Source of the DNA: an uncultured Candidatus Saccharibacteria bacterium
GTDB taxonomy: Bacteria > Patescibacteriota > Andersenbacteria > UBA10190
Assembly: GCA_964610055.1 (NCBI GenBank)
Contig: CAZSUC010000001.1
Coordinates: forward strand, 431,912 to 495,911
Direction of reading: 5' to 3'
Length of the DNA: 64,000 nucleotides
How positions within the stretch are numbered: position 1 is the stretch's first letter; each line of letters starts with the position of its first letter. The notes beneath the pieces were generated by a model. That model was not told where the DNA came from. It saw nothing but the letters and a program-made list of their open reading frames with translations, and did no database searches. The translations under genes were made by a program, and so were the position numbers. This document shows positions 2,823 through 39,069 of this stretch, in pieces.

Positions 2823-3341
2823 ATGTATAACAAACTTGCCCGTTCCGCAGTTGAATATCTGGTAAAATACGACCAATATTTACCAATTCCCGGTTCATTA
2901 GCGCCTGATTTATCTCGTCAGCGCGCTTGTTTTGTCACAATTACTGAGCGCCCTGGCAACAAGCTCATTGCTCAGTACGGGTCATTATTACCTAAATATT
3001 CAAACCTAGCCGAAGAAATATTTGCTAACGCCGCTCAAGCTGTCTTGTCTCATTCTGCTAAACGCTTGCGTCGCCCTGATCTCCCGCACTTGTCTTATTC
3101 AGTTGCTATTATTAGCCCACTTCAGCGTGTCGGAGATATTACTCATCTCAATCCAGCTGTTTTTGGTCTTTATCTAACCACTGATCGCGGTAAGAGCGTC
3201 ACTATTATGCCTGGTCGAGCCGGTATCGAAACCGCTGACGATCAATTTGCTACCGCTTTGCGTGAAGGCGATATTCTGCCGCGCGAAGAAGCTTTAACTA
3301 TGTATCGTTTTGCTGTGGAGTATGAAAAATCAACGACCTAA
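2823..3341 (+). CDS. AMMECR1-like domain protein (divergent; Cys of LRGCIG motif replaced)
   Basis: 172 aa; FVTITE...LIAQYGSLLP aligns to AMMECR1 FVTL...LRGCIGT..P pattern with C->Q. Confidence 0.35.
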   Translation: MYNKLARSAVEYLVKYDQYLPIPGSLAPDLSRQRACFVTITERPGNKLIAQYGSLLPKYSNLAEEIFANAAQAVLSHSAKRLRRPDLPHLSYSVAIISPLQRVGDITHLNPAVFGLYLTTDRGKSVTIMPGRAGIETADDQFATALREGDILPREEALTMYRFAVEYEKSTT

Positions 3342-5214: not shown

Positions 5215-5828
5215 CCAATCGTTTCTTTAACTGTCATACTAGTAATAATCGCTGCCCTTTCTTGTTCGTCTAGCTTCATGCGAATGTAACGAATTGTGCT
5301 TTTAAGCTGCGGAATTAACACATGCTCTAAAGCATTAACGCGTCGTCGAGTTTTTTCAATTTCTTCTGCGAGTAACTGTGCTGTTTTTTCTACCGCTGCT
5401 AATTCTAAGAGTCGAGGCAATACTTTTTGCAAGGCGGCTTGTCCTGCATCTAATTCAGCTGAAGTTTCCCAAACACCATATGTTTGTTTGGTGTCTTGCA
5501 AACTAATTTCAAAATGCGGAATCTTAACTCCCATCACATTTTTTTCACTCACGCCCAAGTCTAATTTTTGAGTTTGTACATGCCGCACCACTTGAACTGC
5601 CTGTGGCTCCATGGCGGCCTCTGCCATCATAAAATGCTTTAACGCCGCAACTAATTCCAAATCAACCGCTTGGCGCAAACTGTGAGCTTGCCGCACAATT
5701 TTCATAAATTCTTGCATTAAGCCATCTCTCTTCTCTTTCAGGAGCTTATGTCCTTTTGCCGCTAAAGCCGCGCGCTTTTTTAAGCGCAGCAGCTCCATGC
5801 GGGTTGGATTTACACGTAGCTGGGACAT
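5211..5828 (-). CDS. atpD: A/V-type ATP synthase subunit D
   Basis: 205 aa; signature N-terminus NPTRMELLRLKKR. Confidence 0.9.
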   Translation of the reverse strand: MSQLRVNPTRMELLRLKKRAALAAKGHKLLKEKRDGLMQEFMKIVRQAHSLRQAVDLELVAALKHFMMAEAAMEPQAVQVVRHVQTQKLDLGVSEKNVMGVKIPHFEISLQDTKQTYGVWETSAELDAGQAALQKVLPRLLELAAVEKTAQLLAEEIEKTRRRVNALEHVLIPQLKSTIRYIRMKLDEQERAAIITSMTVKETIG

Positions 5829-5848
5829 ACTTGAACTTATTTAGAGAA

Positions 5849-7237
5849 TTACGCTACCGCGTACTTCTCGATGTACTCCGGCTTAATCCGTTTTAACTCT
5901 CCCTTCGGCAAACCGCTTAATAATTTCCAACCTAATTTTAGTGTGTCTTCAATACTACGGTTCTCATCGTTTGCTTGTCGGACAAATTGATTTTCAAACT
6001 CCTGCACAAACCGTAAATATTTCTTATCTGTATCGGTCAAAGCTCCTTCACCCAAGATTACGGCCAATTCTCGTACTTCTTGTCCGCGTGCGTACGAAGC
6101 AAATAACTGGTTTGCTACTCCAGAATGATCTTCTCTCGTTTTGCCTTCACCGATTCCTTTAGGCATTAACCGTGACAATGAGCCTAAGACATTTACTGGC
6201 GGATAAACACCTTTTTGATGTAAATCTTGACCCAACACGATTTGTCCTTCCGTGATATATCCTGTTAAATCTGGAATCGGATGAGTCTTATCATTTTCTG
6301 GCATCGACAAAATTGGCAGCTGTGTAATTGAACCTTCTTCGCCTTGTAAACGACCAGCTCGTTCATACAAAGTTGCTAAATCAGAGTAGAGATATCCTGG
6401 ATATCCGCGTCGTCCCGGAACTTCTTTTCGCGCTGAGCTAATCTCTCGCAACGCTTCCGCATAATTTGTCATATCGGTCATAATCACCAAAACATGCATG
6501 TGCTGCGTAAAGGCCAAGTATTCCGCGGCCGTCAGAGCCATACGTGGAGTTGCAATTCTCTCCACCGCTGGGTCATCAGCCAAATTAATAAAGAGGACTG
6601 ACCGTTCAATCGCTCCGCGATTAGTGAAGTCAGAAATAAAGAATTCCGCTTCTTCAAAGGTAATTCCCATCGCTGCAAATACAACCGCGAATTCAATTCC
6701 TTTTGCTCCTTCTTTATGAGCTGATGGCACTGTAGCCTGACGCGCGATTTGTGCCGCTAATTGCGAATGTGGCATTCCTGCTCCGGAAAAAATCGGCAAT
6801 TTCTGACCCAAAACCAACGTATTCATCCCGTCGATTGTCGAGATACCAGTCTGAATAAAATCATCCGGATATGCTCGTGCTGCTGGATTGATTGGAGAAC
6901 CATTAATATCCCGTTCTTCGTCCGGTACGATTTCTGGCTTACCATCAATTGGTTTGCCTGAACCAGAGAATGTTCTTCCCAGTAAATCCATTGATACTGG
7001 TAATTTCAAAACATCCCCCTGGAATCGAATCTTGGTTTCCGGGATATTTAATCCGCTGGTGCCTTCGAACATCTGTACGACTGCACGATCACCATTAATT
7101 TCCAAGACTTTTCCACGTCGTAAGCTACCATTAGGTAATTCCACTTCGACTAATTCGTCATATGACACCCCCTCAATCCCCTCCGCAATTAACAAGGGGC
7201 CGGTCACTTCTGCTGTTGTCTTATATTCCTTTAACAT
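5849..7237 (-). CDS. atpB: A/V-type ATP synthase subunit B
   Basis: 462 aa; non-catalytic nucleotide-binding subunit, segments [11 protein letters not shown] and [27 protein letters not shown]. Confidence 0.9.
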
Positions 7238-7253
7238 ATCTTTCCTCCTTAAA

Positions 7254-9062
7254 TTAATTACTCGTAGGTGCTACCTCGGACTGGGATGCTATTTGTTCAT
7301 CCTCGGCTCGCAGTCCTTGCACCGCACTTACGATTTCTTTTTCAATTTGATCAAACTTTGTTGTTACGTCTTCTTCGCGGGTTAACTTTGCCCGAGCAAT
7401 CATTTCCCAAACCGGTAATCTCATTAAGTCAGATAAATCATAATCAGATTTCTCTAAGTGTGCTCTGGATGTGCGGTACAACAGGATGATTACTTTTAAC
7501 ATGCGGTACTGTTTGTTGATAGAAGTGTAGGTATCTACTTCATCAAATGCATTTTGTTGCAAGTAATCTTCTCGAATAGATCGAGCTATATGCATCAGAA
7601 TCTGCTCTTGCTTTGACAAAGCTTCCAAGCCAACTAAACGCACCACTTCTTCCAACGCCGCTTCTTCTTGCAAGATACCCATTGCCTCAGTTCGTAATTC
7701 TTCCCACTCCTCACTGGCTTGTTCCGTGTAATAACTGCCTAACTGATCCAAGTACAAAGAGTAGCTATTGAGCCAGTTAACCGACGGATAATGTCGACTA
7801 TAAGCTAACTTTTCATCTAATCCCCAGAAAACTTTTACTACGCGCAAAGTATTCTGTGTCACTGGTTCCGACAAATCTCCACCCGGAGGCGATACCGCAC
7901 CAATTGCAGTTAATGATCCTTCTCGCCCTTCTGAGCCTAATACTTTAGCGGCACCGGCTCTTTCGTAAAACTGGGCTGTACGTGATCCTAAGTAAGCAGG
8001 ATAACCCTCGTCACCCGGCATTTCTTCCAAGCGACCTGACATTTCTCGCAACGCTTCCGCCCAACGCGAAGTTGAATCAGCCATTAACGCCACGGCATAT
8101 CCCATGTCACGATAATATTCTGCAATCGTCATGCCGGTATAAACTGAAGCTTCTCGTGCCGCGACCGGCATATTGGATGTATTTGCAATCAAAATAGTGC
8201 GTTGCATCAAAGGTTTTCCTGTATTTGGATCCTCTAATTCAGGGAACTCTAATAACACGTCAGTCATTTCATTGCCGCGCTCACCGCATCCAATATAGAC
8301 AATTACTTGTGCGTCTGCCCATTTAGCAATTTGCTGTTGCACTACAGTTTTGCCTGATCCGAATGGACCAGGAACAGCTCCAGTTCCACCTTTGGCGATA
8401 GGGAAAAATGTATCAATTACACGTTGTCCGGTTACTAAAGGTTTACCCGGGACTAATTTCTTTTGCACGGGACGCGGTTGTCTAATTGGCCATTTTTGCG
8501 CCAATTGCAATGTATGAGTTTTTCCTTCAGCGTCAACTACTTCAGCAATTACTTCTTCTACAGTAAAACTTCCAGAAGCAATCTTTTTGATTTTACCTGC
8601 TACATATGGCGGCACCATGACTTTATGTTCAATCACGTCTGTTTCCGGTACTGTACCTAAAATATCGCCTCCGCTTACTTCGTCCCCTACTTTGGCTGTA
8701 GCGGTAAAATCCCACTTCTTTTCTAAATCTAAAGCAGGCACATTAACTCCTCGTGCAATAAACGCTCCGCTTTGGGAACGAATCACGTTTAATGGTCTTT
8801 GAATACCATCATAAATGTTATTCAACATTCCCGGCCCTAGCGTGACCGATAAAGGAGTACCCTCAGTGTGCACTTCCATTTCTGGTGCTAATCCAGACGT
8901 TTCTTCGTAAACCTGGATTGAAGCGGTATCACCTTCTAATTCAATAATTTCTCCGACCAGCTGTTGTGGCCCCACGCGCACTACATCATACATCTTGGCG
9001 CCTCGCATGTTCGTAGCCACCACCAGCGGTCCTGCAACTTTTTTAATTTTGGCGTTTGCCAT
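7254..9062 (-). CDS. atpA: A/V-type ATP synthase catalytic subunit A
   Basis: 602 aa; Walker [10 protein letters not shown]; typical A-subunit non-homologous insert region. Confidence 0.9.
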
Positions 9063-9081
9063 AGCTGGTTAATTATATTAA

Positions 9082-9420
9082 TTAATTAGATCCTAAAATA
9101 TCCGAACCCACTGCTTTGATCATCAGATTTTTCATTTTCGCAGCCGCGACGTTAGCTGGTTGCAACGCGTTTGGTAATAACACAATTGCTGGCAATGTAT
9201 CTCCATTAATTTTTTCCACCTCAAGGAGAACACTTTCTGCCAACCCTTCATCAACAAAGATAATGCGAAATTGTCCTTCTTCTTTGAATTGACGCAGGGT
9301 TTTTAACAAATTCTCGCCATCCACACACGTTTCTACGTGAATTCCTGACATCGCAAAACCAAGTCCGCTACCTGGCGGAGCGATATAAGCTAAGGGTGTT
9401 GTGTTTATGTGGGCTTGCAT
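9082..9420 (-). CDS. atpF: A/V-type ATP synthase subunit F
   Basis: 112 aa; position between C and A in operon; GFAMSGI segment resembles subunit F GFRLAGI. Confidence 0.6.
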   Translation of the reverse strand: MQAHINTTPLAYIAPPGSGLGFAMSGIHVETCVDGENLLKTLRQFKEEGQFRIIFVDEGLAESVLLEVEKINGDTLPAIVLLPNALQPANVAAAKMKNLMIKAVGSDILGSN

Positions 9421-9422
9421 AT

Positions 9423-10346
9423 TTAAGCTGTTTGCAAGTATAAAGGTCGACGCAAATTTGTTATTGCTTCTGATTCCAAGCCCTGTGCGCGCGCAGTGAC
9501 TAATAAGCGCACAGACTTTGCTTCCATCTCAACCGCGTACCAAAAAGCCATAATCGAGTCATATCCTACTGGTTCATATTGATACGGGCGTACCAAGCGC
9601 ATGAGTTCTATATCCCAAGCGCGTTCGTAATCAGCGCTGCTTTGCTGCATTTGAACTTGTTCAATTGCTTCACGGGTCAAGGCCGGATAACGTTCCTGCC
9701 AAGCCACAAGCGTTTGTGACATACCTATTTTATCCGACGATTGACGTATTTCGCGATCACACTCTAAGCGATCCTGATACCATCGCAAGACTGTGTGACT
9801 TAATGGAGTTTTAGCATTGGCTTTCATAGTCTTTAAAACCACTGCCTCTGCTTCGTCCATTACTGTTTTCGTCGATTCTGGCGCATCGGGATCAAGCGTT
9901 AACATCTGGTGAACATAATCTTGCCAATTTTTTGGCAATGCCTCCCATCCTACTTCATCCCAAATTACGCTTTGCCATGTTTCAGGCAAAACACTGCCCA
10001 AACGTGATAAGGTTTGAGGCGCTGTTTGTCCGCTCATTTTATCTAAGATCGCTGCTGCCGCATTCAGTCCGTCATAGCGAGCTTGATAAAACTGCAGCAC
10101 CCTCTCATCCGTAATCATTTCATCTAGCCAGGTTTTTAGACGAACAAGACGCTCTTCAATTGCGCGTTCCGCCACGTCTGCTTCTGCCGTAGGATTCATC
10201 CATTTTCCGTAAGAAGTATCTACTAGCACATGAACCGCTTCCTGCAAAGTCGGCGCTTCTATGATGCGAGTATATTCATCCTCTTGCAGTAGTTTCATTT
10301 CTTCTGCGCGGATGATCCCAATTATATATGGCGTGTCAAAACCCAT
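9423..10346 (-). CDS. atpC: A/V-type ATP synthase subunit C
   Basis: 307 aa alpha-helical protein at the C position of the H-I-K-E-C-F-A-B-D operon. Confidence 0.6.
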   Translation of the reverse strand: MGFDTPYIIGIIRAEEMKLLQEDEYTRIIEAPTLQEAVHVLVDTSYGKWMNPTAEADVAERAIEERLVRLKTWLDEMITDERVLQFYQARYDGLNAAAAILDKMSGQTAPQTLSRLGSVLPETWQSVIWDEVGWEALPKNWQDYVHQMLTLDPDAPESTKTVMDEAEAVVLKTMKANAKTPLSHTVLRWYQDRLECDREIRQSSDKIGMSQTLVAWQERYPALTREAIEQVQMQQSSADYERAWDIELMRLVRPYQYEPVGYDSIMAFWYAVEMEAKSVRLLVTARAQGLESEAITNLRRPLYLQTA

Positions 10347-25876: not shown

Positions 25877-25947
25877 TGGAGATAAGAAAATAAATAACAC
25901 CTTTGCTATCATCGAGCGTGGCTTTATTTAATCCTTCAAATAAAGTC

Positions 25948-27291
25948 ATGAAAAAGACTCCATACAAAAACCAACAAAATATCGACGTCGAGTACGTCAA
26001 CACAAAGAATCTAAAATCAGCGTCATATAACCCTCGGCATTGGAACGACGACGCAAGGAAGCAGCTCAAAGAGAGTGTGCGGCGATTCGGTCTCGTTGAT
26101 CCGATAATCTGCAATAGTGCTCCTTCTCGGAAAAACACAGTCATTGGTGGGCATTTTCGCTTGGCTGTTGCTAAAGAGCTTGGCTTCAAAGAAGTCCCCG
26201 TCGTTTACGTTAATATCCCTACTCTTGAGCGGGAAAAGGAACTTAATCTTCGACTCAATAAGAATCAAGGTGAATGGGATTTTGACCTATTGGCTGAATT
26301 CGATGAGAAATTACTCGCCGATGTCGGATTTAATTCCGAGGAGCTCGATGAAGTATTTGCTGAAATTGAAACGCCAGAAGAATTCGACCTTGAGAAAGAA
26401 CTTCAAAAACTTGATATCAAAACTGTTGAACTCAAGAAAGGTGACATCGTGCAATTAGGTGACAGTCGGATGCTAGTTGGAGACTCGACTATTGAGGCCG
26501 ATTTCATAAAGCTCATGAATGGTGAACAGGCGGACATGTGTCTGACCGATCCCCCATATTTACTAGATTATTTAAACGCCAAGCGTCATGGCAAAGCAGT
26601 AACAGGATTTGGGGCAAAGCGTGATCGACGGTATCTCGAAACGGATGTTTTACCAGATAACTTCACTGAGCTATGGATGGGTAATATTGCCAAGGTACAA
26701 AAAACAAACTTCAGTATTATCGTCTACGAGAATTGGAAGAATCTGCGCGTTATTTGGGAAGAAATGGAAAAGCACTGGAAAGTTAAGAACATGCTGGTCT
26801 GGCATCTGCCGAATCGCCATCAAGGCTTCTCCGCTAAGCACAAATTCTTCAGCAAGCATGACATCGCAATGGTAGGTGCAAGCAAGAATTCCGATGTCAC
26901 TTACAACCATTCCGAAGAAGCAGATGGTCTTCAAGAAGAATATGAGACTGCTTTGTATGCCATAGCCGGAAAACCACACTGGGAGGGATACAAGAAGGGC
27001 AAGAAAGTGATGCCAACTGACTTCATTGAATTCAATGCTTCTGATGAGAAGCATTCTGGGCAGGGCGTTGTGTTCGGTACCAAGCCCATCGAAATCCTCA
27101 TTCCCTACATCAAGGTACTCACGAAACGTGGCGACTTAATCGTGGAGCCATTCGGAGGATCAGGAAGTACATTGATCGCTGCCACGAAAATGAAGCGACG
27201 CTGCTACATCATGGAAAAATCTCCTGTATACGCGGAAGTGATTCGTAAGCGCTGGGAGAAGCTAACTGGGGAGAAAGGAGTGGTTGTATGA
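25948..27291 (+). CDS. ParB-like nuclease domain / DNA methyltransferase fusion (beta-class N6A or N4C)
   Basis: N-terminal ParB motif GGHFRLAVAKELGFKEVPVVYV; DPPY motif IV (CLTDPPYLL) preceding motif I (VEPFGGSGSTLIAA); ORF track begins at TTG 25903, ATG at 25948 more likely. Confidence 0.8.
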   Translation: MKKTPYKNQQNIDVEYVNTKNLKSASYNPRHWNDDARKQLKESVRRFGLVDPIICNSAPSRKNTVIGGHFRLAVAKELGFKEVPVVYVNIPTLEREKELNLRLNKNQGEWDFDLLAEFDEKLLADVGFNSEELDEVFAEIETPEEFDLEKELQKLDIKTVELKKGDIVQLGDSRMLVGDSTIEADFIKLMNGEQADMCLTDPPYLLDYLNAKRHGKAVTGFGAKRDRRYLETDVLPDNFTELWMGNIAKVQKTNFSIIVYENWKNLRVIWEEMEKHWKVKNMLVWHLPNRHQGFSAKHKFFSKHDIAMVGASKNSDVTYNHSEEADGLQEEYETALYAIAGKPHWEGYKKGKKVMPTDFIEFNASDEKHSGQGVVFGTKPIEILIPYIKVLTKRGDLIVEPFGGSGSTLIAATKMKRRCYIMEKSPVYAEVIRKRWEKLTGEKGVVV

Positions 27292-27722
27292 GCAAGGCAC
27301 TAGCCATAAAGCAGAGTAAGAAAAAAGAAGCATTACTTGAACAGCTCAGGAAAGTACCGATTGTGCAACTTGCCTGCGATCGCACTGACGTAAGTCGAGC
27401 AACGTTCTATCGCTGGAAGAAAAGTGATAAGGATTTTGCCGAAGCCGTTGATGAAGCTCTGCTATCAGGATCTTCGCTTATCAACGACATGGCGGAATCA
27501 AAGCTCATTGCCGCTATCAAAGAGGGCAACATGACTGGGATTATCTATTGGCTGAAACATCATCATCCGGCATATACCACCCGAGTAGAGCTGTCTGTGG
27601 GACCGAAGCAAAACGATGAGCTTACCGCTGAACAGCAGCAAGTAGTTCAAGAAGCGCTAGCAAAAGCAGCCCTTATTGAACAAGGGGAAATTAATTCACT
27701 AAATGAAACCTATGAAAAATAA
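27288..27722 (+). CDS. putative terminase small subunit (HTH)
   Basis: 144 aa; HTH RATFYRWKK; start overlaps methyltransferase stop (ATGA) and its end overlaps the large terminase start. Confidence 0.5.
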   Translation: MSKALAIKQSKKKEALLEQLRKVPIVQLACDRTDVSRATFYRWKKSDKDFAEAVDEALLSGSSLINDMAESKLIAAIKEGNMTGIIYWLKHHHPAYTTRVELSVGPKQNDELTAEQQQVVQEALAKAALIEQGEINSLNETYEK

Positions 27723-29151
27723 TATTCTATCGCCTGAAGTATTAGGTCACTTAATGCGTGACCGCATGGCACGACAAGCAGTAGCCTCTCATAACCATCT
27801 TCTGTTCTTCCATATCTACTTATCCCGATACGTAAAGTACGACACTGCAGAATTTCAACGTAAGCTATTCAAGCTCACCGAGGACTCGAGTATCCGACAT
27901 GCAGCTATCGTTGCATTTCGAGGGTCTGCCAAGACAACCATCATGACGCTTTCATACCCCCTTTGGGCTATCCTCGGTGTTCAGCAGCGTAAATTCGTCA
28001 TGCTTTTAAGCCAGACGCAGGGACAGGCTCAACAAATGCTTGTGAATCTGAAGCGTGAGATTGAGAATAATGAAATATTGCGGAATGACTTCGGTGCTCT
28101 TGAGCACGCAACCGATGAGTGGGGTCGAGAATCACTCGTTATCAAAAAATACGGTGCCAAGATTATGGCGGCTTCGAGCGAAACGAGTGTACGAGGCGTA
28201 CGGTTCGGAGAACACCGACCGGATCTCATCATCTGCGATGACGTTGAAGATTTGCAGTCAACCGCTACCCGAGAGGGACGCAATAAGACATATAACTGGC
28301 TCATGGGAGATATCATCCCAGCTGGAGACCGCAACACCCGAGTTGTTGTTATCGGAAATCTACTGCATGAAGACTCACTCCTCATGCGATTAAAAGAAGA
28401 TATGGATCGTGACCGACTTGATGGAGCCTTTCTGCAATTCCCTCTTTTGGATGAGAATGATAAGCCGCTCTGGCCAGGCAAGTTCCCTGACCAAGAAAGC
28501 ATTGATCGTCTACGTAAGACTGTACCAAGCCTACCAGCCTGGCATCGTGAATACATGCTTAACATTGTTCCAAATCAAGACCAGATTGTGCTTCAAGAGT
28601 GGATTAAATATTACGATAACCTTCCGCCAGAGGAGCGCTACAAAACTGTCGTGGCCGTTGATCTCGCAATCGGACTTGAGAAAAACAATGATTACACAGC
28701 AATCCTAAGTGCTCGCATTTATGGGTATGAAGATAAGATGCAGATATTTATTCTGCCAAATATCATCAACAAACGAATGAGCTTCCCAGACCAGCGCCTT
28801 ACGCTACAATCTGTTGCAGATAGCTTGGGGCATCCCAAGATATACATTGAAGATGTCGCCTATCAAAAATCGTTAATCCAGCAATTGAAAGCCGACGGGT
28901 ACAGTGTTGATGGCGCAAAGGTATTCGGACAAGACAAGTTCTCACGTCTCGAAACCGTAACTCATCTTTTGCAAAACGGTCAGGTGTTCTTCCCTCGAGA
29001 ACGTTCCAAGGAGCTTGTTAATCAGCTAACGGGCTTTGGAATTGAGAAACACGATGACCTAGCAGATGCCTTTTCAATTCTTCTGCAAAAAGCGATCGAG
29101 AATAACCGACGGCGAGGGCGAGTATGGGCACATAAGCCAAAGGGATTCTGA
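27703..29151 (+). CDS. phage terminase large subunit
   Basis: 482 aa; ATPase Walker A-like AFRGSAKTT, Walker B LIICDDVED; C-terminal RNaseH-like nuclease (VAVDLAIG...DYTAI). Confidence 0.8.
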   Translation: MKPMKNNILSPEVLGHLMRDRMARQAVASHNHLLFFHIYLSRYVKYDTAEFQRKLFKLTEDSSIRHAAIVAFRGSAKTTIMTLSYPLWAILGVQQRKFVMLLSQTQGQAQQMLVNLKREIENNEILRNDFGALEHATDEWGRESLVIKKYGAKIMAASSETSVRGVRFGEHRPDLIICDDVEDLQSTATREGRNKTYNWLMGDIIPAGDRNTRVVVIGNLLHEDSLLMRLKEDMDRDRLDGAFLQFPLLDENDKPLWPGKFPDQESIDRLRKTVPSLPAWHREYMLNIVPNQDQIVLQEWIKYYDNLPPEERYKTVVAVDLAIGLEKNNDYTAILSARIYGYEDKMQIFILPNIINKRMSFPDQRLTLQSVADSLGHPKIYIEDVAYQKSLIQQLKADGYSVDGAKVFGQDKFSRLETVTHLLQNGQVFFPRERSKELVNQLTGFGIEKHDDLADAFSILLQKAIENNRRRGRVWAHKPKGF

Positions 29152-29159
29152 TGTGCCAA

Positions 29160-30305
29160 CTAGACAAGGACATCATTGGAAGATTTTTCGCCAAAGAATT
29201 CACTAATCATCTCGTTGTATCTAAAGAAAGCACCAAGTAGTTGGAATGCATAGTCTGGTTGGATAATTCCATCCAATCGAAATAGCTTAATCTTTGTCGG
29301 CTTTCCCCTGCTCCTACTAAGAAGAGGATTCCACTCATCCCTAAATCTCTCATTGTGAACTGCTCGGCTATACGCAAAAACAGATCCATCAAAATGAGTA
29401 AACTTTTGCTGAGACCTATCCCATTCTAAGTGTGCAAACCGGTGCAGTACAACCTTGTCAGTAATTCCAGCACTTCCATTAATTGGCAAAATTTCTTCGA
29501 CAGAAATCGATTTCTTAGGTCCTGTCGACTGATTTTTTATATCAAAGACTGTAGCGTTAATCGGGTAGGTATCGTCCAGTATTTTCTTCTGACTATTTTC
29601 CATCCTCTTGTGCAGTGTCGTTCCTACATAATTTTGATCATTCAAATTTTCAATTGAAAAGTAAGGACCATGCCAATAGTCAGCCTCTACATACTCTAAA
29701 TAGTTCTTCGAATCAGTCATTCGGCTTGGATCAACAGCTAACTTAAGCTCAATATCATTATCATCATGAGCCTTCATCAGCAGGCTAGTTGTATCAGTAA
29801 ACTTTCCCTGAAAAAACCTTCGCAAAAATGGATGATAGTAGATAAGCTTATCTCCAAAAATAATTCCCTGTCTTCTTAAATCAAACAAACTAGCTTCTAC
29901 CAAATTATCACCATCAAACTCCAATTTCTCTTTCTTCAAAAAATCTACCACCAAACCACTGCCACCACGTTCAATATAAAAATTGATTCTCGGGAATAGT
30001 TTATCAACGTCATAGGTTATACATGCAAAAACAATATCTTCAATATTTTCAGAGCCCATTGGAAATAGCAGAAGTTTAAGATCAGGATATTTTTCCATTA
30101 AATCTTGAATATCTGCTTTTTTAACTCTCGTCTTATAAATAGCATCGAGCTTATCGTATAGGTGACGTAGCTGACTGCTATTTAGATAAAAATTTAAACG
30201 AGTAGGAATTCCATCCCTATGAAAAAGCTCTTGGGAAAAGTTGTTGAGCAATTCCTCCTCTGAGCTATTACCACCAACAAAATTGAGAATCGTCTTTTCT
30301 TGCAT
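29160..30305 (-). CDS. hypothetical protein (island cargo, unknown function)
   Basis: 381-aa ORF convergent with terminase large subunit; no recognisable motifs. Confidence 0.45.
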   Translation of the reverse strand: MQEKTILNFVGGNSSEEELLNNFSQELFHRDGIPTRLNFYLNSSQLRHLYDKLDAIYKTRVKKADIQDLMEKYPDLKLLLFPMGSENIEDIVFACITYDVDKLFPRINFYIERGGSGLVVDFLKKEKLEFDGDNLVEASLFDLRRQGIIFGDKLIYYHPFLRRFFQGKFTDTTSLLMKAHDDNDIELKLAVDPSRMTDSKNYLEYVEADYWHGPYFSIENLNDQNYVGTTLHKRMENSQKKILDDTYPINATVFDIKNQSTGPKKSISVEEILPINGSAGITDKVVLHRFAHLEWDRSQQKFTHFDGSVFAYSRAVHNERFRDEWNPLLSRSRGKPTKIKLFRLDGIIQPDYAFQLLGAFFRYNEMISEFFGEKSSNDVLV

Positions 30306-30377
30306 ATAAATAGCATAACATTTGAGGCCAGTTACCTACTTCCCTTGTAGAAAACCTTGCGGCACTGTTGACCTGCT

Positions 30378-31661
30378 ATGAGCGACATCCGCTACTGCCT
30401 ATATGCCAGAAAATCGTCAGAACGGGACGAACTTCAAGCCCTTTCAGTGGATTCCCAAGTAAAAGAGATGCAGGACATGGCTAGACGAGATGGGATTAAC
30501 GTGGTGGAGATATATCGAGAAAGTCACTCAGCTAAAGACTCGGGGCAACGTCCGGTATTCATGAAGCTAATTGAAGATATTAGGAGTAGCAAATTCAATG
30601 GAATTCTGACATGGGCGCCAGACCGCTTAAGCAGAAACGCTGGTGACCTGGGATCACTAGTTGATCTCATGGATCAAAAGAAGCTTGAAGAAATCCGCAC
30701 TCACGGTCAGACATTCCATAACTCGCCGAATGAAAAATTCTTACTCATGATCCTGTGTAGCCAAGCCAAGCTTGAGAACGACAATCGAGGACTAAATGTG
30801 AAGCGAGGCCTGCGCGCTAAGTGTGAGATGGGGTATAGGCCAGGGGTATCGCCGCTTGGGTATCTCAACAATAAATTTGCGAAGAAGGGCGAGAAGAAAG
30901 TTACACTTGATCCCGCTCGCGCGCCCATTATTAGGGAGATGTTCGAGAAGGTCGCATATGAAGGCTACAGCGGCCATCAAATACTAAGATGGATTAACAA
31001 TGAGACCGACTTTACTACCAGATCAGGAAAACAAATGGTGCTAAGCACCGTCTATCTCCTACTTCGCGATACTTACTACTATGGGAAATTTGAATACCCG
31101 AAGGGTAGCGGAAATTGGTACAAAGTTAATCACAAATCAATCATCACTAAGAAGATATTTGATCTGGTACAAGAAAATATCGTGGCTACAAAAAAGCGTA
31201 AGCCCGGAACACTGGAGTTCGACTTCACTCGGCTCATAACTTGCGGTGAGTGTGGCTCTGGAATATCAGCGGAGGAGAAATACAAACAACTTAAAAACGG
31301 ATCAGTAAATAGATATGTGTATTACCGATGCAGTAAGGGCAAGCGAGTAGAATGTCACGAACCGTACGTAAGAGAAGAAAACCTTGTTGAGCAGCTATTA
31401 CAGCTGATAGACAATCTGGATATGGATAAAATGCTTATTAGTAATAAGCTAGCCAAAGAATTAGAAAAGTACCAAAAGTTCGCATCTGGAGTGCTGCAGG
31501 TAGAAGAAATTAGTAGTACGCCAAAAGTAGATATTCGCAGTTATGCGAAGTATGTTTTAAAAGAGGGCAGTCGAAGCGAGAAAAGAGACATCTTATCTTG
31601 TCTGCAAACAAAATTAATTCTTACCAATCAAAAAATTTCTCTTAGAGCGCATAGCAACTAG
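30378..31661 (+). CDS. large serine recombinase
   Basis: 427 aa; resolvase catalytic domain YCLYARKSS...Q; recombinase domain; zinc ribbon CGECGSG...YYRCSKG. Confidence 0.9.
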   Translation: MSDIRYCLYARKSSERDELQALSVDSQVKEMQDMARRDGINVVEIYRESHSAKDSGQRPVFMKLIEDIRSSKFNGILTWAPDRLSRNAGDLGSLVDLMDQKKLEEIRTHGQTFHNSPNEKFLLMILCSQAKLENDNRGLNVKRGLRAKCEMGYRPGVSPLGYLNNKFAKKGEKKVTLDPARAPIIREMFEKVAYEGYSGHQILRWINNETDFTTRSGKQMVLSTVYLLLRDTYYYGKFEYPKGSGNWYKVNHKSIITKKIFDLVQENIVATKKRKPGTLEFDFTRLITCGECGSGISAEEKYKQLKNGSVNRYVYYRCSKGKRVECHEPYVREENLVEQLLQLIDNLDMDKMLISNKLAKELEKYQKFASGVLQVEEISSTPKVDIRSYAKYVLKEGSRSEKRDILSCLQTKLILTNQKISLRAHSN

Positions 31662-31678: not shown

Positions 31679-34600
31679 CTAAGCACTGCATATAACATCA
31701 AGATCTGTTCCAATAGTTTCTTTCAAGTAACTATGCGCAGCTGCAAGTACGGCTGCTTGCTCCGGGGTATGCGAAGCAAGCGAAAGCCCTGGTTGGACTA
31801 TAACTATCTCTGACCTTATCTCTTTAAACCTACTTACCTTTACATAGCGGTTAAGGTCTGAGGTTTGACCTACCAAAAAACGAGTTGCTCTGACCACTTT
31901 TATCAATCTCTTCTCTCTTCCCAAAACATGGCGGCATAAATCTCTAAATTTCCATTTCCACTTTGCTGACCGAATAGCCTGAGAACACACTTCAACTACA
32001 TCATTTACTCGTTCACCGGGGGTACTTCCCTTTGTAAATTTGCAATGAACCAATGTGAGTCTAATATGATCATCCTCTTCCTTTAAACAAACAAGATCAG
32101 CCGCCTCTCCTGAAGCGTCGTCATTAAATACCACGTCAAAGCCCCCTTCAATGAAATGCTGCGCAGCACGCCACTGAATCGAATCCAAATGCTCAGCGCC
32201 CTCTTTCCACATTGATTCCTTGCTAATGTCCACACCTTCCCAATCCCAAACCTCAAATCTTTCTACGGGAAAAGTGAGATCTTGTGTGCTCTGAGGGCGA
32301 ATCAGAAGGTTGCCATCCAGTTCTGATAGATCCATAAAACGTATTAGTGGAGGATAGTTAGAAAAATACTCTTCAACTTTCACTTCTAAGGAGCCGACTC
32401 GAATTTTTAGTTCCATCGAAGATGAGCGAGTAACCCGAAAGCCCTCTATACCCCCAACAGTTAGTTTAAAAATCCCCCAAACATCTCCTGTACTTGAACG
32501 AAGTTGGAAATCAACCTCACTAGTTGTTGCATCAGAGTGTAGTATTTCGATATCAAACATAGCAATCGATAGCTCATCATCTCCCTTTAGCAGTGTCACG
32601 CGCTCTTCCGACTGACGTATCAACTCTACCGGCCAGTCGATGCTTAATATTTGTGCGTCTGGAAGAGCGGTAACCTCTTCCGGAATCAAAACGTTTTCAA
32701 TAATTTTTTTTGTATCAATAGTATCGTCTTTCAACTTCCTACCAACAGCTTCACACCATCTTACAAGCTCGGGTACAGTCCCGGGCTCACGGGCCCAAAT
32801 ACGGCCCTTATATGAACACCCTATTGTTACCGGCCCACCATTTTCCCAGCCTGTTCCACTCAGGTTTGATTTTATAGATCCAGCTCTTTCTGAAATACTT
32901 AGAGCTTCTGCAACATCAGAACCTGTATACAACGCGTACCTTAAATTACGTCGCCCATGCTTCCGAACTCCCACATTTTGAAAAATCAGGCGATTAATAT
33001 TGCCAAGCGACCGAAAAATTATATCTCCTGATATTATCTGTGTACCACCGACTGCTAATGCAACCTTTTCATGATTTGAAGATTTGTCGCTCGATGACAG
33101 AAAAAGCAACCCTTGATCCTGATCATAGTGAAGAACAAAAAGATCCCATATGCGATCACGAATCTTTTTTGAGCGGGTCCACCGGATCGGTGGCTCCAGC
33201 CGAGTTACAAAATAAAGAGTATTTGTTTCCTCATGAAGCCATACCCTATGCACATTGAGACCTTTTGGTATTCCTTTAAAAAACCTTTTTGGGTTAAAAG
33301 ATGCTGCTTCATAGACAAGGGTACTGAAAGTTGGCCTTAGAAGATGGTGCGATATCTCAAGCTCCTCATCACCGTCAACTTCATCAAGTCTCTGTGACGA
33401 GTTAAGAAATTCAACCAAAGATGCGTGAGACCGAGCAGCATCAGAACTAAGCTCACTTAGAAGGTGGTTCCAGTCAGCATCTTCACTGTAAAGTCTTTCT
33501 AAAGCAGAAGACACACCTTGCTCGGCAATATTCGCAATCACAGTTGCATCACCAATTGACTCAGCAGAACTTCGAGTAAATCTTCCGGTAAATTGCAGAA
33601 GTATTGCTAAACTTTTGTGCGTATCATGAATAGCGGCAACTTTCAGTTGAGGAAGATCAAAACCTTCTCCTAGCATATTAACACACACGACTATTCGACT
33701 CCCTCCAGACCTTAACGTGTCTATCAATCCATCGGTATCAGCTAAATCAGAGTGAACAAGAACAGGGTTAAGATCGGGAGCAATTTCTTGATAAATTTGG
33801 CAAACATAGCTAGCCCTGCTTATGTTTGCACATCTTGCCATCATTATGTGGTTTTTCCCTGAGGCGACATCTTCACGTAAACGATCCACTGCAGCTTTTG
33901 CAATTGCCTGATCGGCTGCCTCTTGGTCAATCTCATAAACTGATTCAAAAGAAATCTTTTTGAAATATCCATCACGCTGTGCCAATTGAAGTGGGTATTC
34001 ATAAATCACTTTCCCATCAACCAACTTCCCATCTCGCCGATATGGTGTGGCAGTAAACTGTAAAACTTTGCACGCAGAAAAATTTTCACGGAAAGATGCC
34101 CAACCCTTTGCTGCGACGTGATGAGCCTCGTCAACAATTAAAGTATCAACTACTTCCGCAACTGCAGGTAGCAGACTAGATGTAACACTTCCAGTTAAAG
34201 CGCTCATGGTAGCTACTACTACGTTGCAATCCTCGAATATGCTGACTTCATCCTTAGTCCGGGGGCGCCTGGTAACTATTCCCACAATAGGGTTTTTTGC
34301 TCCAGGCATTAGGTTCCCAAGTGATCGCAGTAAGCCAAGGGTAAGAAATTTTTTAGCCGTTTGATCGCGCAGCACTCTAGACGGAACCACAACTAGTAAC
34401 CTCCCAGAGGCATATGCGATCAAGGTGGCAAGCATTGTCTCGGTTTTGCCAGTACCTGTGGGCATTACGATGGTAGCTGGCTGATTATTCAAGCTCCAGT
34501 GTGAACCGATTGCATGCAGTCCTCCTATTTGAGGTGGCCTTAAACCCTTCGATACAACATTACCAGCTTTATCCCTCTCCTCAGCATGAAAACTAAACTT

Positions 34601-34999
34601 ACCATTCCAACTAGCTGCTATTTCGGTTGCAATGTGCTTAAGGCCTTTTTGTTCAACATTTTCTTGAAATTCATCAAGTAATCTATGGGATAACCACTTT
34701 GATTCAGTACTAGCATCAATTTGCAATATGCCGTCCACACTAGAGGGACGAGAAAGTTTTTTTCGTTCTGTAACAATAATTGCTTGCCCGTCCGAGAGTT
34801 TGTATAGTTTTTCCCTAATTCTAGAAGAGACCTGAATGTCCTCAATGCTAATCACATCTTTTACCCCACCTTCTCCCAAAACGTGACTAATGTGCCCCAC
34901 GGCATGTTTAAGAGGTCCAAACTCAAGAGCAGGGAGTTTCAATTTCGTTGCAGTATTTTCTGATTCTAAATTTGGACTCATTATTGATATTAGAGACAA
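31679..34999 (-). CDS. SF2 DEAH-box helicase with large C-terminal region ending in a putative PD-(D/E)xK-like nuclease domain
   Basis: 1106 aa; Walker A MPTGTGKT, Walker B LIVDEAHHV, motif III FTATP, motif V NMLGEGFDLP, motif VI QFTGRFTR; C-terminal GEAADLVCL...LTLVHCKF; ORF track start is TTG, first ATG at 34981. Confidence 0.65.
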   Translation of the reverse strand: MSLISIMSPNLESENTATKLKLPALEFGPLKHAVGHISHVLGEGGVKDVISIEDIQVSSRIREKLYKLSDGQAIIVTERKKLSRPSSVDGILQIDASTESKWLSHRLLDEFQENVEQKGLKHIATEIAASWNGKFSFHAEERDKAGNVVSKGLRPPQIGGLHAIGSHWSLNNQPATIVMPTGTGKTETMLATLIAYASGRLLVVVPSRVLRDQTAKKFLTLGLLRSLGNLMPGAKNPIVGIVTRRPRTKDEVSIFEDCNVVVATMSALTGSVTSSLLPAVAEVVDTLIVDEAHHVAAKGWASFRENFSACKVLQFTATPYRRDGKLVDGKVIYEYPLQLAQRDGYFKKISFESVYEIDQEAADQAIAKAAVDRLREDVASGKNHIMMARCANISRASYVCQIYQEIAPDLNPVLVHSDLADTDGLIDTLRSGGSRIVVCVNMLGEGFDLPQLKVAAIHDTHKSLAILLQFTGRFTRSSAESIGDATVIANIAEQGVSSALERLYSEDADWNHLLSELSSDAARSHASLVEFLNSSQRLDEVDGDEELEISHHLLRPTFSTLVYEAASFNPKRFFKGIPKGLNVHRVWLHEETNTLYFVTRLEPPIRWTRSKKIRDRIWDLFVLHYDQDQGLLFLSSSDKSSNHEKVALAVGGTQIISGDIIFRSLGNINRLIFQNVGVRKHGRRNLRYALYTGSDVAEALSISERAGSIKSNLSGTGWENGGPVTIGCSYKGRIWAREPGTVPELVRWCEAVGRKLKDDTIDTKKIIENVLIPEEVTALPDAQILSIDWPVELIRQSEERVTLLKGDDELSIAMFDIEILHSDATTSEVDFQLRSSTGDVWGIFKLTVGGIEGFRVTRSSSMELKIRVGSLEVKVEEYFSNYPPLIRFMDLSELDGNLLIRPQSTQDLTFPVERFEVWDWEGVDISKESMWKEGAEHLDSIQWRAAQHFIEGGFDVVFNDDASGEAADLVCLKEEDDHIRLTLVHCKFTKGSTPGERVNDVVEVCSQAIRSAKWKWKFRDLCRHVLGREKRLIKVVRATRFLVGQTSDLNRYVKVSRFKEIRSEIVIVQPGLSLASHTPEQAAVLAAAHSYLKETIGTDLDVICSA

Positions 35000-35127
35000 T
35001 TGTTAACCCCATACAATAGTATATCCACGACACTTAGGCACGCCTGGACTTAGGGGCACTTCTGTGCTCCATATGATAATTGAGACCTTGGATAGAGTCC
35101 GGTTGACTCGAACTAAATTGGCTTGCT

Positions 35128-35198
35128 CCGGGACAGGGATTCGAACCCCAATTTTTGGGACCAGAACCCAACGTCCTGCCGTTAGACGATCCCGGAAT
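35128..35198 (-). tRNA. tRNA-Gln (anticodon CUG)
   Basis: Cloverleaf derived by hand: acceptor tccggga/tcccgga, anticodon arm ttggg-ttCTGgt-cccaa, T-arm ggggTTCGAATccct. Confidence 0.7.
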
Positions 35199-37973: not shown

Positions 37974-39069
37974 TTATTTTGCCTCAAATGTGGAATCAAG
38001 GAAAGTGTCGAGTTGTCCGTCTAGTACCGCTTGTACATCCGTCGTCTCAACCCCACTGCGATGATCTTTAACTAATTTATACGGATGCAAAACATATGAC
38101 CGAATTTGATTGCCCCAGGCTGCCTCTTTAATTTCACCGCGCAATTCGCTCACTGTTTGTGCGCGTTGCTCTTCCATCAGCTGGCTTAATTTCGCTTTCA
38201 AAATACTTAGAGCCTGTGCTTTGTTCTGTCCCTGCGAGCGTTCATTCTGGCACTCTACTGTAATTCCGGTTGGCATATGTTTGACTCGTACCGCTGAGCT
38301 CGTCTTATTCACTTTCTGTCCTCCCGCCCCGCTGGCGCGGAAAGTATCAATTTCAATTTCTTTCATATCAATTTCCGGTAATTCTTTTTCCGGCAATTGT
38401 GGAATCGCTTCCACGCGTGCAAACGAAGTTTGGCGCAAACTATCCGCGTTAAAAGGTGATTGTCGCACTAATCGATGCACTCCCCGCTCCCCTCTTAATT
38501 TGCCGTAAGCTAAACGTCCGCTAAATAAGATTGTACTGTGTTTTATCCCCGCTTCTTCTCCCGGAGACCGATTAATAATTTTCGTTTGCCATTTTTCATG
38601 CTCTGCAAACCTTAAATACATCCGTTCCAGCATTTCTGCCCAATCTTGGGCGTCTGTCCCTCCTACCCCGGCTTGAATTGTCACAATTGCATTTTGATCG
38701 TCATGCGGCCCGTCAAAACGTAAATCATGCTCAATCTGTGTTAACCCCTTCTCAATTTTTTCCACATCAGCTAACAATGTCTCAATTTCCTGCGCATCTT
38801 TTTCCGCCGCCGCTAATGCCAATAATTCTCGTGTTTCAGTCAGTAACTGATCTAATTCTAGCCACGCTTCAATTCGTCCCTGTGCCGCTGCTTTTTCCTG
38901 CTGCAGGGCTTGCGCGGTTTCTCGATTATCCCAAAATCCGGGCATCAATTCCTGCTGACCTATATCCTCAATCCGTTGTTTTAAGTTTGGTACGTCAAAG
39001 ACGGTCGGCTGCGTCTTGCAGCCGCCGGCTCATGTCTTGTAGTCGTTCTGACCAAGTATCAGGTACCAT
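37974..39069 (-). CDS. prfB: peptide chain release factor 2 with programmed +1 frameshift
   Basis: Frame-0 ORF MVPDTWSERLQDMSRRLQDAADRL ends at CTT TGA C (plus coords ~38985-38993); +1 frame continues DVPNLKQRIEDIGQQELMPGFWDNRETAQAL...; GGQ motif (SGAGGQKVNKT), SPF motif (RQSPFNADS). Confidence 0.85.

Follow-up and report, generated by a model that had tools for sequence, protein, structure and literature searches.

The window, a stretch of DNA of 64,000 nucleotides from a CPR/Patescibacteria genome, encodes a large protein that joins an SF2 motor to a C-terminal domain with a restriction-endonuclease-like fold. On balance, and with some reserve, we favor the reading that this protein is a stand-alone ATP-dependent helicase-nuclease, acting as a single-polypeptide effector against phages or other mobile DNA. 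The initial annotation had proposed a candidate defence helicase-nuclease, and the nuclease fold together with the defence-island and mobile-element context supports that proposal, the function itself being our inference. As it had also claimed, the ORF is uninterrupted between positions 31679 and 34999 of the minus strand, with 1106 codons counted from a TTG. An ATG located 18 nucleotides downstream of this TTG (MSPNL..., 1100 residues) is the start of the identical database protein P0001 and of all close homologues. From these shared starts, the gene most likely covers positions 31679-34981, the TTG at 34999 being the mechanical limit of the ORF. Because it has thousands of homologues, and full-length relatives at 58-83% identity in a database protein search, the ORF is a real gene and not a chance one. 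A promoter and terminator scan at the locus returned signal at or below the shuffle expectation.

Domain organization of the helicase-nuclease

The motor exhibits the Walker A, DEAH, TAT and QxxGRxxR motifs of SF2 in two RecA-like lobes. The SF2 motifs quoted in the initial annotation were all found again (Table 1), and Pfam analysis agrees on the SF2 core, reporting hits with ResIII (5.1e-24), DEAD (1.5e-13) and Helicase_C (7.5e-07), and a marginal one with SWI2_SNF2 (PF18766, 3.2e-06). The ATPase motifs are invariant across 97 divergent family members. The accessory domain that precedes the motor has a pLDDT of 85-90 in the full-length AF2 model, and its residues 11-123 did not return any Pfam hit. 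Among the 97 divergent members its conservation is 0.09-0.24 with 20-28% gaps, and a 996-residue family member of E. coli is devoid of it. Its variability, or absence, in distant members raises the possibility of a sensor or regulatory role.

The middle region is specific to the family, and its fold resembles TBP-like, CENP-N or Iml3 domains only weakly; it may participate in DNA binding or in coupling the motor to the nuclease. Within it, the loop comprising residues 670-703 has a pLDDT below 50 in both structure models despite strong sequence conservation. G671, K674, G676, R677, N679, L680, Y685 and G687 are invariant or nearly so in the close set of homologues, and G671 and G687 remain conserved at ≥95% in the 97-member divergent set. 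We consider this loop a candidate for contacts with DNA or a partner.

Table 1. Coordinates of the helicase-nuclease gene, its domains and motifs, and the context features in the window (aa, residues of the 1100-residue protein)
Feature	Position	Strand	Remarks
Helicase-nuclease gene, 1100 aa	31679-34981	-	ATG at 34981, stop at 31679-31681; P0001 100% identical
N-terminal accessory domain, aa 11-123	34613-34951	-	all-beta (aa 11-99), then two helices; AF2
SF2 ATPase/translocase core, aa 140-490	33512-34564	-	two RecA lobes; motifs and Pfam
Walker A, PTGTGKTE	34439-34462	-	coordinates re-derived from sequence
Walker B, DEAHH	34118-34132	-	coordinates re-derived from sequence
Motif III, FTATP	34043-34057	-	coordinates re-derived from sequence
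Motif VI, QFTGRFTR	33572-33595	-	coordinates re-derived from sequence
Family-specific middle region, aa 500-930	32192-33484	-	long helix, then several beta-rich alpha+beta domains
Conserved loop, aa 670-703, VGVRKHGRRNLRYALYTGSDVAEALSISERAGSI	32873-32974	-	sequence conservation, low-confidence prediction
PD-(D/E)xK-fold nuclease-like domain, aa 935-1100	31682-32179	-	restriction-endonuclease-like fold
Nuclease signature DD-x3-E-x2-D ... H-C-K, DDASGEAADLVCLKEEDDHIRLTLVHCK	32039-32122	-	
Q1001	within 31958-31990	-	
Large serine recombinase/integrase	30378-31661	+	tail-to-tail with the helicase-nuclease gene; context, not a functional partner; Pfam
tRNA-Gln(CTG)	35125-35196	-	144 nt upstream of the gene, same strand; context only; ARAGORN
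ParB-N6_N4 methyltransferase	25903-27291		beside terminase genes; ParB-fused, phage-type

The C-terminal domain adopts the α-β-β-β-α-β arrangement of restriction endonucleases. The PD-(D/E)xK assignment of the initial annotation therefore stands at the level of the fold, and the C-terminal motif it had quoted is located in the nuclease signature. The 600 C-terminal residues returned no sequence-level match in Pfam, NCBIfam, PADLOC, PHROGs or the PDB (phmmer), nor did a profile of 26 nuclease-domain sequences against the PDB and Pfam. Seven residues of the domain (D954, D955, E959, D962, H979, K981 and Q1001) are invariant across the 97 divergent members. D962 and K981 occupy the expected catalytic positions, the canonical (D/E) being replaced by H979, and the additional acids D954, D955 and E959 lie near the predicted catalytic site. 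As read from the sequence, this predicted site is a variant D...HxK. With a histidine in place of the second acid of (D/E)xK, the site could differ in chemistry from a standard Mg-dependent DNase, or be non-catalytic; we infer an active nuclease with DNA as its substrate. If so, the invariant histidine would add to the catalytic variants known for the PD-(D/E)xK fold. The cleavage domains of the FokI and N.BspD6I type and the CdiA-CT EC869 DNase share 9-16% identity with the window domain but exhibit D...DxK, and they are tethered to a sequence-recognition or toxin-delivery domain, in contrast to the ATPase of the window protein. HamA resembles the window nuclease domain at the fold level only.

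Distribution and genomic context of the family

Clustered at 50% identity, the family yields 1455 clusters from many phyla, and almost all of them share one layout of ~1000-1120 residues. The 62-65% identity observed between unrelated phyla indicates horizontal transfer. In E. coli, the gene is present in 8 of 5426 genomes. The member of strain ECONIH5 (WP_001549206.1, 996 residues; NZ_CP026202, 113400-116390), 37% identical to the window protein, adjoins the retron Ec78 and is also found on IncF/IncHI plasmids of Klebsiella, so that the hypothesis is directly testable in a standard host. A single-sequence search of genome contigs, which is not a census, reported 6 loci. Two records of the phage collection and at least 4 full-length loci in IMG/VR carry the gene, so that a defence carried by prophages is not typical of the family. 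Because the family is invisible to Pfam (for the 600 C-terminal residues), NCBIfam, PADLOC and the PDB, annotation pipelines label its members only as "DEAD/DEAH box helicase family protein". It is a large, widely exchanged and so far unnamed family; no paper naming WP_001549206 or the four RefSeq accessions tried was found in a literature search. That a CPR genome of ~0.7 Mb harbors a candidate defence gene of 3.3 kb shows that even minimal-genome bacteria retain one.

This distribution refutes a role as a host housekeeping DNA-repair helicase, to which we assign a negligible probability. RadD, XPB and UvrB are indeed the top NCBIfam and PDB sequence matches, and one public record labels a family member uvrB_1, but this similarity covers the motor motifs only and the NCBIfam scores fall far below the cut-offs (51.5 versus 720 bits for RadD, 28 versus 750 bits for UvrB). 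A gene of such patchy occurrence in E. coli, transferred across phyla and found in mobile-element and defence settings, is at odds with a housekeeping helicase family, the outcome against which the initial annotation had cautioned.

Both flanks of the gene are as the initial annotation described them. The recombinase contains the Pfam domains Resolvase, Recombinase and Zn_ribbon_recom and matches the integrase family phrog_95 (9.9e-66); in 4 of the 17 loci compared, a homologous recombinase lies nearby, at varying distance and orientation. The tRNA-Gln(CTG) may be the island boundary; no att-like direct repeat of its end is present within 21 kb, and the GC content is flat (~0.40-0.47) across the island. 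The surroundings form a 9-kb phage remnant devoid of any other defence gene, a weak defence context that counts against an immune role. A 381-residue ORF between TerL and the integrase was considered as a partner and rejected, as it gave no match in any search and is not found again at the other loci. Across the 17 loci there is no conserved partner gene, and Pfam reports no DUF1837 match, in agreement with the claim that neither a Mod nor a HamA-like partner adjoins the gene. The neighbors at other loci are integrases and the known defence genes Gabija, AbiU, retron Ec78-PtuAB, GmrSD and Mrr.

The gene is horizontally spreading cargo, carried by plasmids, by defence islands and by integrated elements at their edges. 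Its association with islands and mobile elements would also be expected of a gene that works for the element. The helicase-nuclease could accordingly process the DNA of its element (replication, recombination, end resection) or mediate competition and exclusion between elements or plasmids, with no direct anti-phage role, a reading we consider improbable. The gene recurs beside integrases, RadC and Prim-Pol and on conjugative plasmids, and in the window it lies in a phage remnant adjoining an integrase. There is also precedent in the DdmD-type helicase-nucleases, which, as cited in PMC11232893, target plasmids and not phages. Against this, the gene has no fixed position or partner within any one type of element, since prophage remnants, ICE-like islands and IS-bounded plasmid segments all carry it, as do chromosomal defence islands. 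A replication module would normally keep its synteny with the origin and initiator genes, and such synteny is not seen in the 17 loci. Adjacency to Gabija, AbiU, the retron and GmrSD is typical of defence cargo.

Relation to known helicase-nuclease systems

A major class of bacterial immunity, with diverse mechanisms, is emerging in the single-protein helicase-nucleases (Hna, HmaA, Nhi, DdmD). The PADLOC comparison proposed in the initial annotation returned no curated defence model beyond the generic motor, the best model being PbeA (7.9e-15 over 157 residues). The likeness to Type III Res, Hachiman or Nhi suggested there does not amount to identity with any of them, as judged from PADLOC, Pfam and the neighboring genes. 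Hachiman associates a HamB-type Ski2-like helicase with a separate HamA (DUF1837) gene; the window protein matches HamB1 only partially (3.8e-06) and has no conserved neighbor, and HamAB was rejected. Nhi is an SF1 (DUF2075) helicase with an N-terminal nuclease, and it was rejected since the window protein comprises an SF2 motor and a C-terminal nuclease and no Nhi model is among the PADLOC matches.

Type III Res subunits such as that of EcoP15I have a Mod partner. The window protein is devoid of one and its middle region is unrelated. If it were nevertheless the Res subunit of a Type III (or Type I/ISP-like) restriction-modification system, with its Mod encoded elsewhere, the ParB-N6_N4 methyltransferase of the window would be an example of such a Mod. 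However, the PADLOC REase_III match is restricted to 87 residues (262-348, E-value 0.0027) and falls short of full length, and no methyltransferase recurs in the 17 loci. The window methyltransferase itself scores as Type II/orphan (6.5e-49 versus 1.9e-07 for Type III), and between it and the helicase gene lie four unrelated genes, not all on the same strand. A Type III Res identity is thereby largely refuted and very improbable, and the missed Mod that the initial annotation had envisaged did not come to light.

The best mechanistic analogue is Hna from Sinorhizobium and E. coli, a single protein that acts by abortive infection and carries its SF2 helicase at the N-terminus and its PD-(D/E)xK nuclease at the C-terminus (PMC13381803). 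Hna is broadly distributed and works alone, its ATP state gating the DNA nuclease, which a phage factor stimulates (PMC13381803). Identity with Hna was rejected, its motor being DinG/XPD-like and its length ~845 residues (PMC13381803). HmaA likewise is a solitary SF2 ATPase with a C-terminal nuclease of the PD-(D/E)xK superfamily (~1180 residues), found in defence islands beside integrases and protecting alone against T4 (PMC11232893). It is defined by the Pfam domains SNF2 (PF00176) and NOV_C (PF13020), and HmaA/Hma was rejected because neither gives a match to the window protein at E ≤ 1. The "helicase-nuclease immune system" of a 2026 preprint is Druantia DruE/DruH, and a domain-centric discovery paper on E. 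coli left out single-gene systems.

The nearest relative of the window protein is PDC-S71, a predicted single-gene phage defence candidate of PADLOC. It shares the layout (~1000 residues), and hhalign finds the SF2 motors of the two (probability 99.1%) as well as their C-terminal nuclease domains (probability 93.2%, E-value 2.9e-07) to be homologous, the latter with a common E-x-AD...HCK...CGQ signature; the hhalign reference was a bona fide PDC-S71 protein (1.6e-49 with the PDC-S71 model). The two are nonetheless distinct: their pairwise identity, 25%, is restricted to the motor, no similarity was detected between their middle regions, and the PDC-S71 profile PDLC05077 matches neither the window protein (E ≤ 1) nor the E. 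coli member (E ≤ 1e-05). On a plasmid of B. cereus, the window family and PDC-S71 are encoded in tandem, between AbiU and Gabija. No paper mentioning PDC-S71 was found in a literature search.

Proposed mode of action

In the helicase-nuclease that we favor, the XPB/RadD/HsdR-type SF2 ATPase would load on DNA and translocate or unwind it using ATP, the family-specific module of ~430 residues would hold or sense the DNA, and the C-terminal domain, with its variant metal site, would cut it, presumably protecting the cell against phages. Since neither a methyltransferase nor any other partner travels with the gene, foreign DNA is most likely distinguished, by analogy with Hna, HmaA, Nhi and Hachiman, by its structure or state (free ends, single-stranded DNA, replication or recombination intermediates) or by a phage cue acting as the trigger, and not by a host methylation mark.

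The absence of a methyltransferase would also be accounted for if the protein were a Type IV-like, modification-dependent and ATP-driven restriction enzyme, in which the middle region or the N-terminal beta domain reads modified bases and the nuclease cuts modified foreign DNA only. SauUSI combines a helicase, a nuclease and a target-recognition domain in this manner. We regard this mode as unlikely for the window protein. As a broader proposal, made tentatively and with somewhat less than even confidence, the helicase-nuclease may be the founding member of a widespread and unrecognized single-gene immune family, with an XPB/HsdR-like motor, a new DNA-sensing module bearing the conserved flexible loop, a non-canonical D...HxK site and a principle of self/foreign discrimination undescribed for helicase-nucleases. 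Together with PDC-S71, it would then form a larger "HCK-nuclease helicase" superfamily of defence proteins. Members of the family occur in CPR bacteria as well as in E. coli and Klebsiella.

Gene boundaries and domain architecture

The helicase-nuclease is encoded on the minus strand of the window by an unbroken ORF (31679-34999) whose mechanical start is a TTG codon. Because P0001, a database entry of identical sequence, and every close relative comprise ~1100 residues and start at an ATG (MSPNL...) located 18 nt downstream of this TTG, the gene is taken as 31679-34981, and residues are numbered from this methionine. The ORF reported by the initial annotation is real, but the protein more likely counts 1100 residues than the 1106 then proposed. 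All the SF2 motifs quoted at the time are present on translation, from which the motif coordinates were re-derived, and both flanks between which the gene had been placed, a serine recombinase and a tRNA-Gln, were found.

Coordinates of the features discussed, in the window and at other loci carrying family members
Feature	Sequence	Position	Strand	Basis or remark
Phage remnant	window	25903-31661		ParB-fused N6/N4 methyltransferase, TerS, TerL, 381-aa orphan, large serine integrase
381-aa orphan ORF	window	29160-30305	-	between TerL and integrase
Large serine recombinase	window	30378-31661	+	
DDASGEAADLVCLKEEDDHIRLTLVHCK	window	32039-32122	-	translation
Conserved loop VGVRKHGRRNLRYALYTGSDVAEALSISERAGSI, residues 670-703	window	32873-32974	-	conservation and model pLDDT
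QFTGRFTR	window	33572-33595	-	translation
FTATP	window	34043-34057	-	translation
DEAHH	window	34118-34132	-	translation
PTGTGKTE	window	34439-34462	-	translation
tRNA-Gln(CTG)	window	35125-35196	-	
prfB (RF2)	window	37974-~39030	-	N-terminally short ORF
CTT TGA C	window	38994-39000	-	canonical +1 programmed-frameshift site
Large serine recombinase	L008	13627-15246		
Large serine recombinase	L015	5611-6936		
Large serine recombinases	L016	1618-3114; 11418-13175		one on each side of the gene
PDC-S71-type helicase and family member	L021 (NZ_CP023246)	3155-9818		in tandem

Pfam analysis assigns the motor to ORF residues 152-477 (ResIII, 5.1e-24; DEAD; Helicase_C) and returns zero matches beyond residue ~500. 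NCBIfam and PADLOC matches are sub-threshold and confined to the motor (PADLOC: PbeA, 7.9e-15 across 157 residues; HamB1, 3.8e-06; REase_III, 0.0027), while PDB sequence searches report solely the RadD, XPB and UvrB motors and no match for the C-terminal 606 residues. In the model of the C-terminal region, D962 (model residue 469) lies directly before the second strand (470-475), and H979-C980-K981 (486-488) stand at the end of the third (479-487). The site therefore reads D...HxK, with a histidine at the canonical D/E position; further acidic residues, D954, D955 and E959, are found just upstream of D962. The PD-(D/E)xK-type fold proposed for this domain is supported, but its putative catalytic motif is a variant, and given the invariant histidine the chemistry may differ from that of the textbook Mg-dependent site. 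The full-length model (pLDDT 81.1, pTM 0.51), in which the domains are reliable but not their mutual arrangement, adds an all-beta N-terminal domain (residues 11-99) and two helices ahead of the motor. The loop of residues 670-703 is among the best-conserved segments of the family, yet both AlphaFold models give it a pLDDT below 50, and binding to DNA or a partner is probably needed to order it.

A family of putative helicase-nucleases and its relatives

Sequence comparison places the protein in a family of putative single-polypeptide helicase-nucleases that is large and uniform, moves horizontally, lacks curation and is associated with defence islands. A whole-protein search returned full-length relatives of ~1090-1110 residues with 58-83% identity. 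With the C-terminal 607 residues alone as query, 1.84 billion representatives were searched exhaustively, which yielded 1455 clusters at E <= 1e-3 (480 at <= 1e-30). Nearly all are proteins of ~1000-1120 residues aligned at ~480-1100, so that motor and C-terminal module are joined in a single, fixed layout. Across 97 full-length representatives (31-55% identical to the query), G176, G178, K179, D284, E285, H287, T312, Q463, G466, R467 and R470 of the ATPase and D954, D955, E959, D962, H979, K981 and Q1001 of the nuclease domain are invariant (97/97), indicating strict purifying selection on both enzymatic centres. In contrast, the first ~120 residues are weakly conserved and frequently missing, as in the 996-residue E. 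coli member, and the N-terminal domain is thus accessory.

The nuclease-domain profile returns no match among Pfam families or PDB sequences, and public records name family members only 'DEAD/DEAH box helicase (family protein)', apart from two records (CAKLQH020000001.1 and CAKLQF020000001.1, gene at ~165.8-167.6 kb) that read uvrB_1 (UvrABC subunit B). These records, of 328-378 kb, are named 'Acinetobacter phage MD-2021a'; the uvrB_1 label is likely a mis-annotation that could propagate. On Rhizobium plasmids, small stand-alone 'hypothetical protein' ORFs (e.g. NC_004041.2, 76938-77330) match the nuclease domain only (residues 460-592 of the C-terminal query, 38% identity), and the nuclease module therefore also exists alone.

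None of the named systems invoked initially (Type III Res, Hachiman, Nhi) fits by profile scores, partners or architecture. REase_III models barely match, and no Mod is linked to the gene at 17 loci; the methyltransferase encoded nearby is fused to ParB, lies beside the terminase genes and is of phage type (Type II/orphan 6.5e-49 versus Type III 1.9e-07). Hachiman resembles the protein only in the nuclease fold of HamA; a HamA gene is missing and the motor shows no particular likeness to HamB. Nhi combines an SF1 motor with an N-terminal nuclease, unlike the SF2 motor and C-terminal nuclease here, and Hna (845 residues, DinG-like motor; PMC13381803) differs in size and motor type. HmaA is defined by SNF2 and NOV_C (PMC11232893), Pfam domains that both lack a match in the helicase-nuclease. 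Housekeeping RadD (51.5 bits, cut-off 720), XPB and UvrB are excluded by their sub-cut-off scores and by the distribution: of 5426 complete E. coli genomes, 8 carry the C-terminal module. With these corrections (1100 residues, D...HxK, no named system), the initial observation is borne out and its interpretation gains support.

The closest relative is PDC-S71, a single-gene phage defence candidate of PADLOC. On a B. cereus plasmid, where AbiU and Gabija flank the pair, a ~1000-residue DEAD/DEAH protein directly upstream of the family member matches PDC-S71 (1.6e-49 across its C-terminal 560 residues). BLAST aligns the two in the motor only (25% identity). Profile comparison reports homologous motors (hhalign, 99.1%) and homologous nuclease domains (93.2%, E 2.9e-07; E-x-AD...HCK...CGQ aligned), whereas the middle regions differ. 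The PADLOC PDC-S71 model detects neither the window protein nor its E. coli relative, and the family is therefore a sister of PDC-S71. The shared motor and nuclease domain around unlike middle regions suggest that both may belong to a larger superfamily whose central modules can be exchanged. A literature search by accessions and family name found no paper on either. The principle of a single-polypeptide helicase-nuclease is already known and the family holds no conceptual surprise; the family, its middle module (residues 500-930) and its nuclease signature, however, appear in none of the libraries and papers searched.

Genomic context and proposed mode of action

The gene is the last of a ~9-kb phage remnant, whose ~6 kb at 25903-31661 include TerL (phrog_38, 3.2e-83) and a serine integrase (phrog_95). 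No structural (capsid, tail) or lysis genes were found in this remnant, which represents a decayed prophage or else a small element of satellite type. Its 381-aa ORF has no match in Pfam, PHROGs, PADLOC or NCBIfam and no counterpart at the other compared loci. Beyond lie two tRNAs and housekeeping genes (ABC ATPase, FtsX, FtsE, RF2). The island may have integrated at the tRNA, but a search within 21 kb for an att-like repeat of the tRNA-Gln end defined no att sites, and composition across the island is flat, without border signal. That the helicase-nuclease serves the mobile element itself would be compatible with this context, and we consider it quite improbable.

All-versus-all BLAST of ORFs within 5 kb of the gene at 17 loci (the window, L002, L005-L011 and L015-L022, of which L005 and L011 have nearly the same flanks) reports only four recurring neighbours: a large serine recombinase (4/17), and a tyrosine integrase, RadC and a GajA-type ATPase (3/17 each). 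The serine recombinases, homologous to one another, are found next to the gene at four unrelated loci with varying distance and orientation (tail-to-tail in the window but head-to-tail in L015) and probably simply mark integrated elements. Defence genes recur beside family members: Mrr_cat with YoeB/Phd; GmrSD_N+HNH, EcoRI methylase and AAA_13; Gabija in B. thuringiensis and B. cereus (confirmed by PADLOC: GajA 1.9e-287, GajB 2.3e-195); AbiU (3.4e-147); and a retron Ec78 RT-PtuA-PtuB in E. coli ECONIH5. On a Klebsiella IncFIB/IncHI1B plasmid, IS5 copies lie on both sides of the gene. Among the matches listed, two IMG/VR proviral contigs (L024, L026) carry the family member <= ~0.5 kb from the contig end, which agrees with the element-edge position that it occupies in the window and at the L011 locus of Ignavibacteria.

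No conserved partner or methyltransferase recurs within 5 kb at the 17 loci, in line with the stand-alone gene, devoid of an adjacent Mod or HamA, described initially. The main rival reading, a defence role following the different logic of a Type IV-like modification-dependent enzyme, accounts equally well for the missing methyltransferase; however, the searches detected no known domain for reading modified bases in the protein, and we consider this reading unlikely. In the most economical model, the whole protein would act on its own as an ATP-dependent translocase-nuclease: its SF2 motor would engage DNA, the middle module and the conserved loop would hold or sense the substrate, and the tethered FokI-like cleavage domain would cut it. 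Foreign DNA would probably be told apart by a cue that the phage encodes or by the structure or state of the DNA itself (ends, ssDNA, forks), in the way reported for Hna (PMC13381803) and for Hachiman (PMC12278908). The variable beta domain at the N-terminus could serve as a sensor or as an autoinhibitory element.

Distribution across hosts and replicons

The nearest relative of the helicase-nuclease shares 83% identity. Values are 62-65% in Ignavibacteria, Verrucomicrobia and Rhodospirillaceae and 52-53% in Myxococcota and Vicinamibacterales, with Parcubacteria and Bacteroidota also among the named homologues, a pattern across phyla that indicates horizontal transfer. The C-terminal module occurs in 106 plasmid records (Rhizobium 42, Klebsiella 10; Bacillus, Vibrio and Pseudomonas among others), 61 of them conjugative, and in only two records of the phage collection. 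The E. coli and Klebsiella members make the family a good, directly testable candidate. As for the host, the best named relatives of the window RF2 belong to Candidatus Andersenbacteria (60% identity; nearest non-self relative 71%), which places the window in a CPR/Patescibacteria genome; the source contig measures 698,565 bp. The frame upstream of its short ORF ends at the programmed-frameshift site; this is an ordinary autoregulated prfB, and UGA is therefore a stop codon in this CPR genome.
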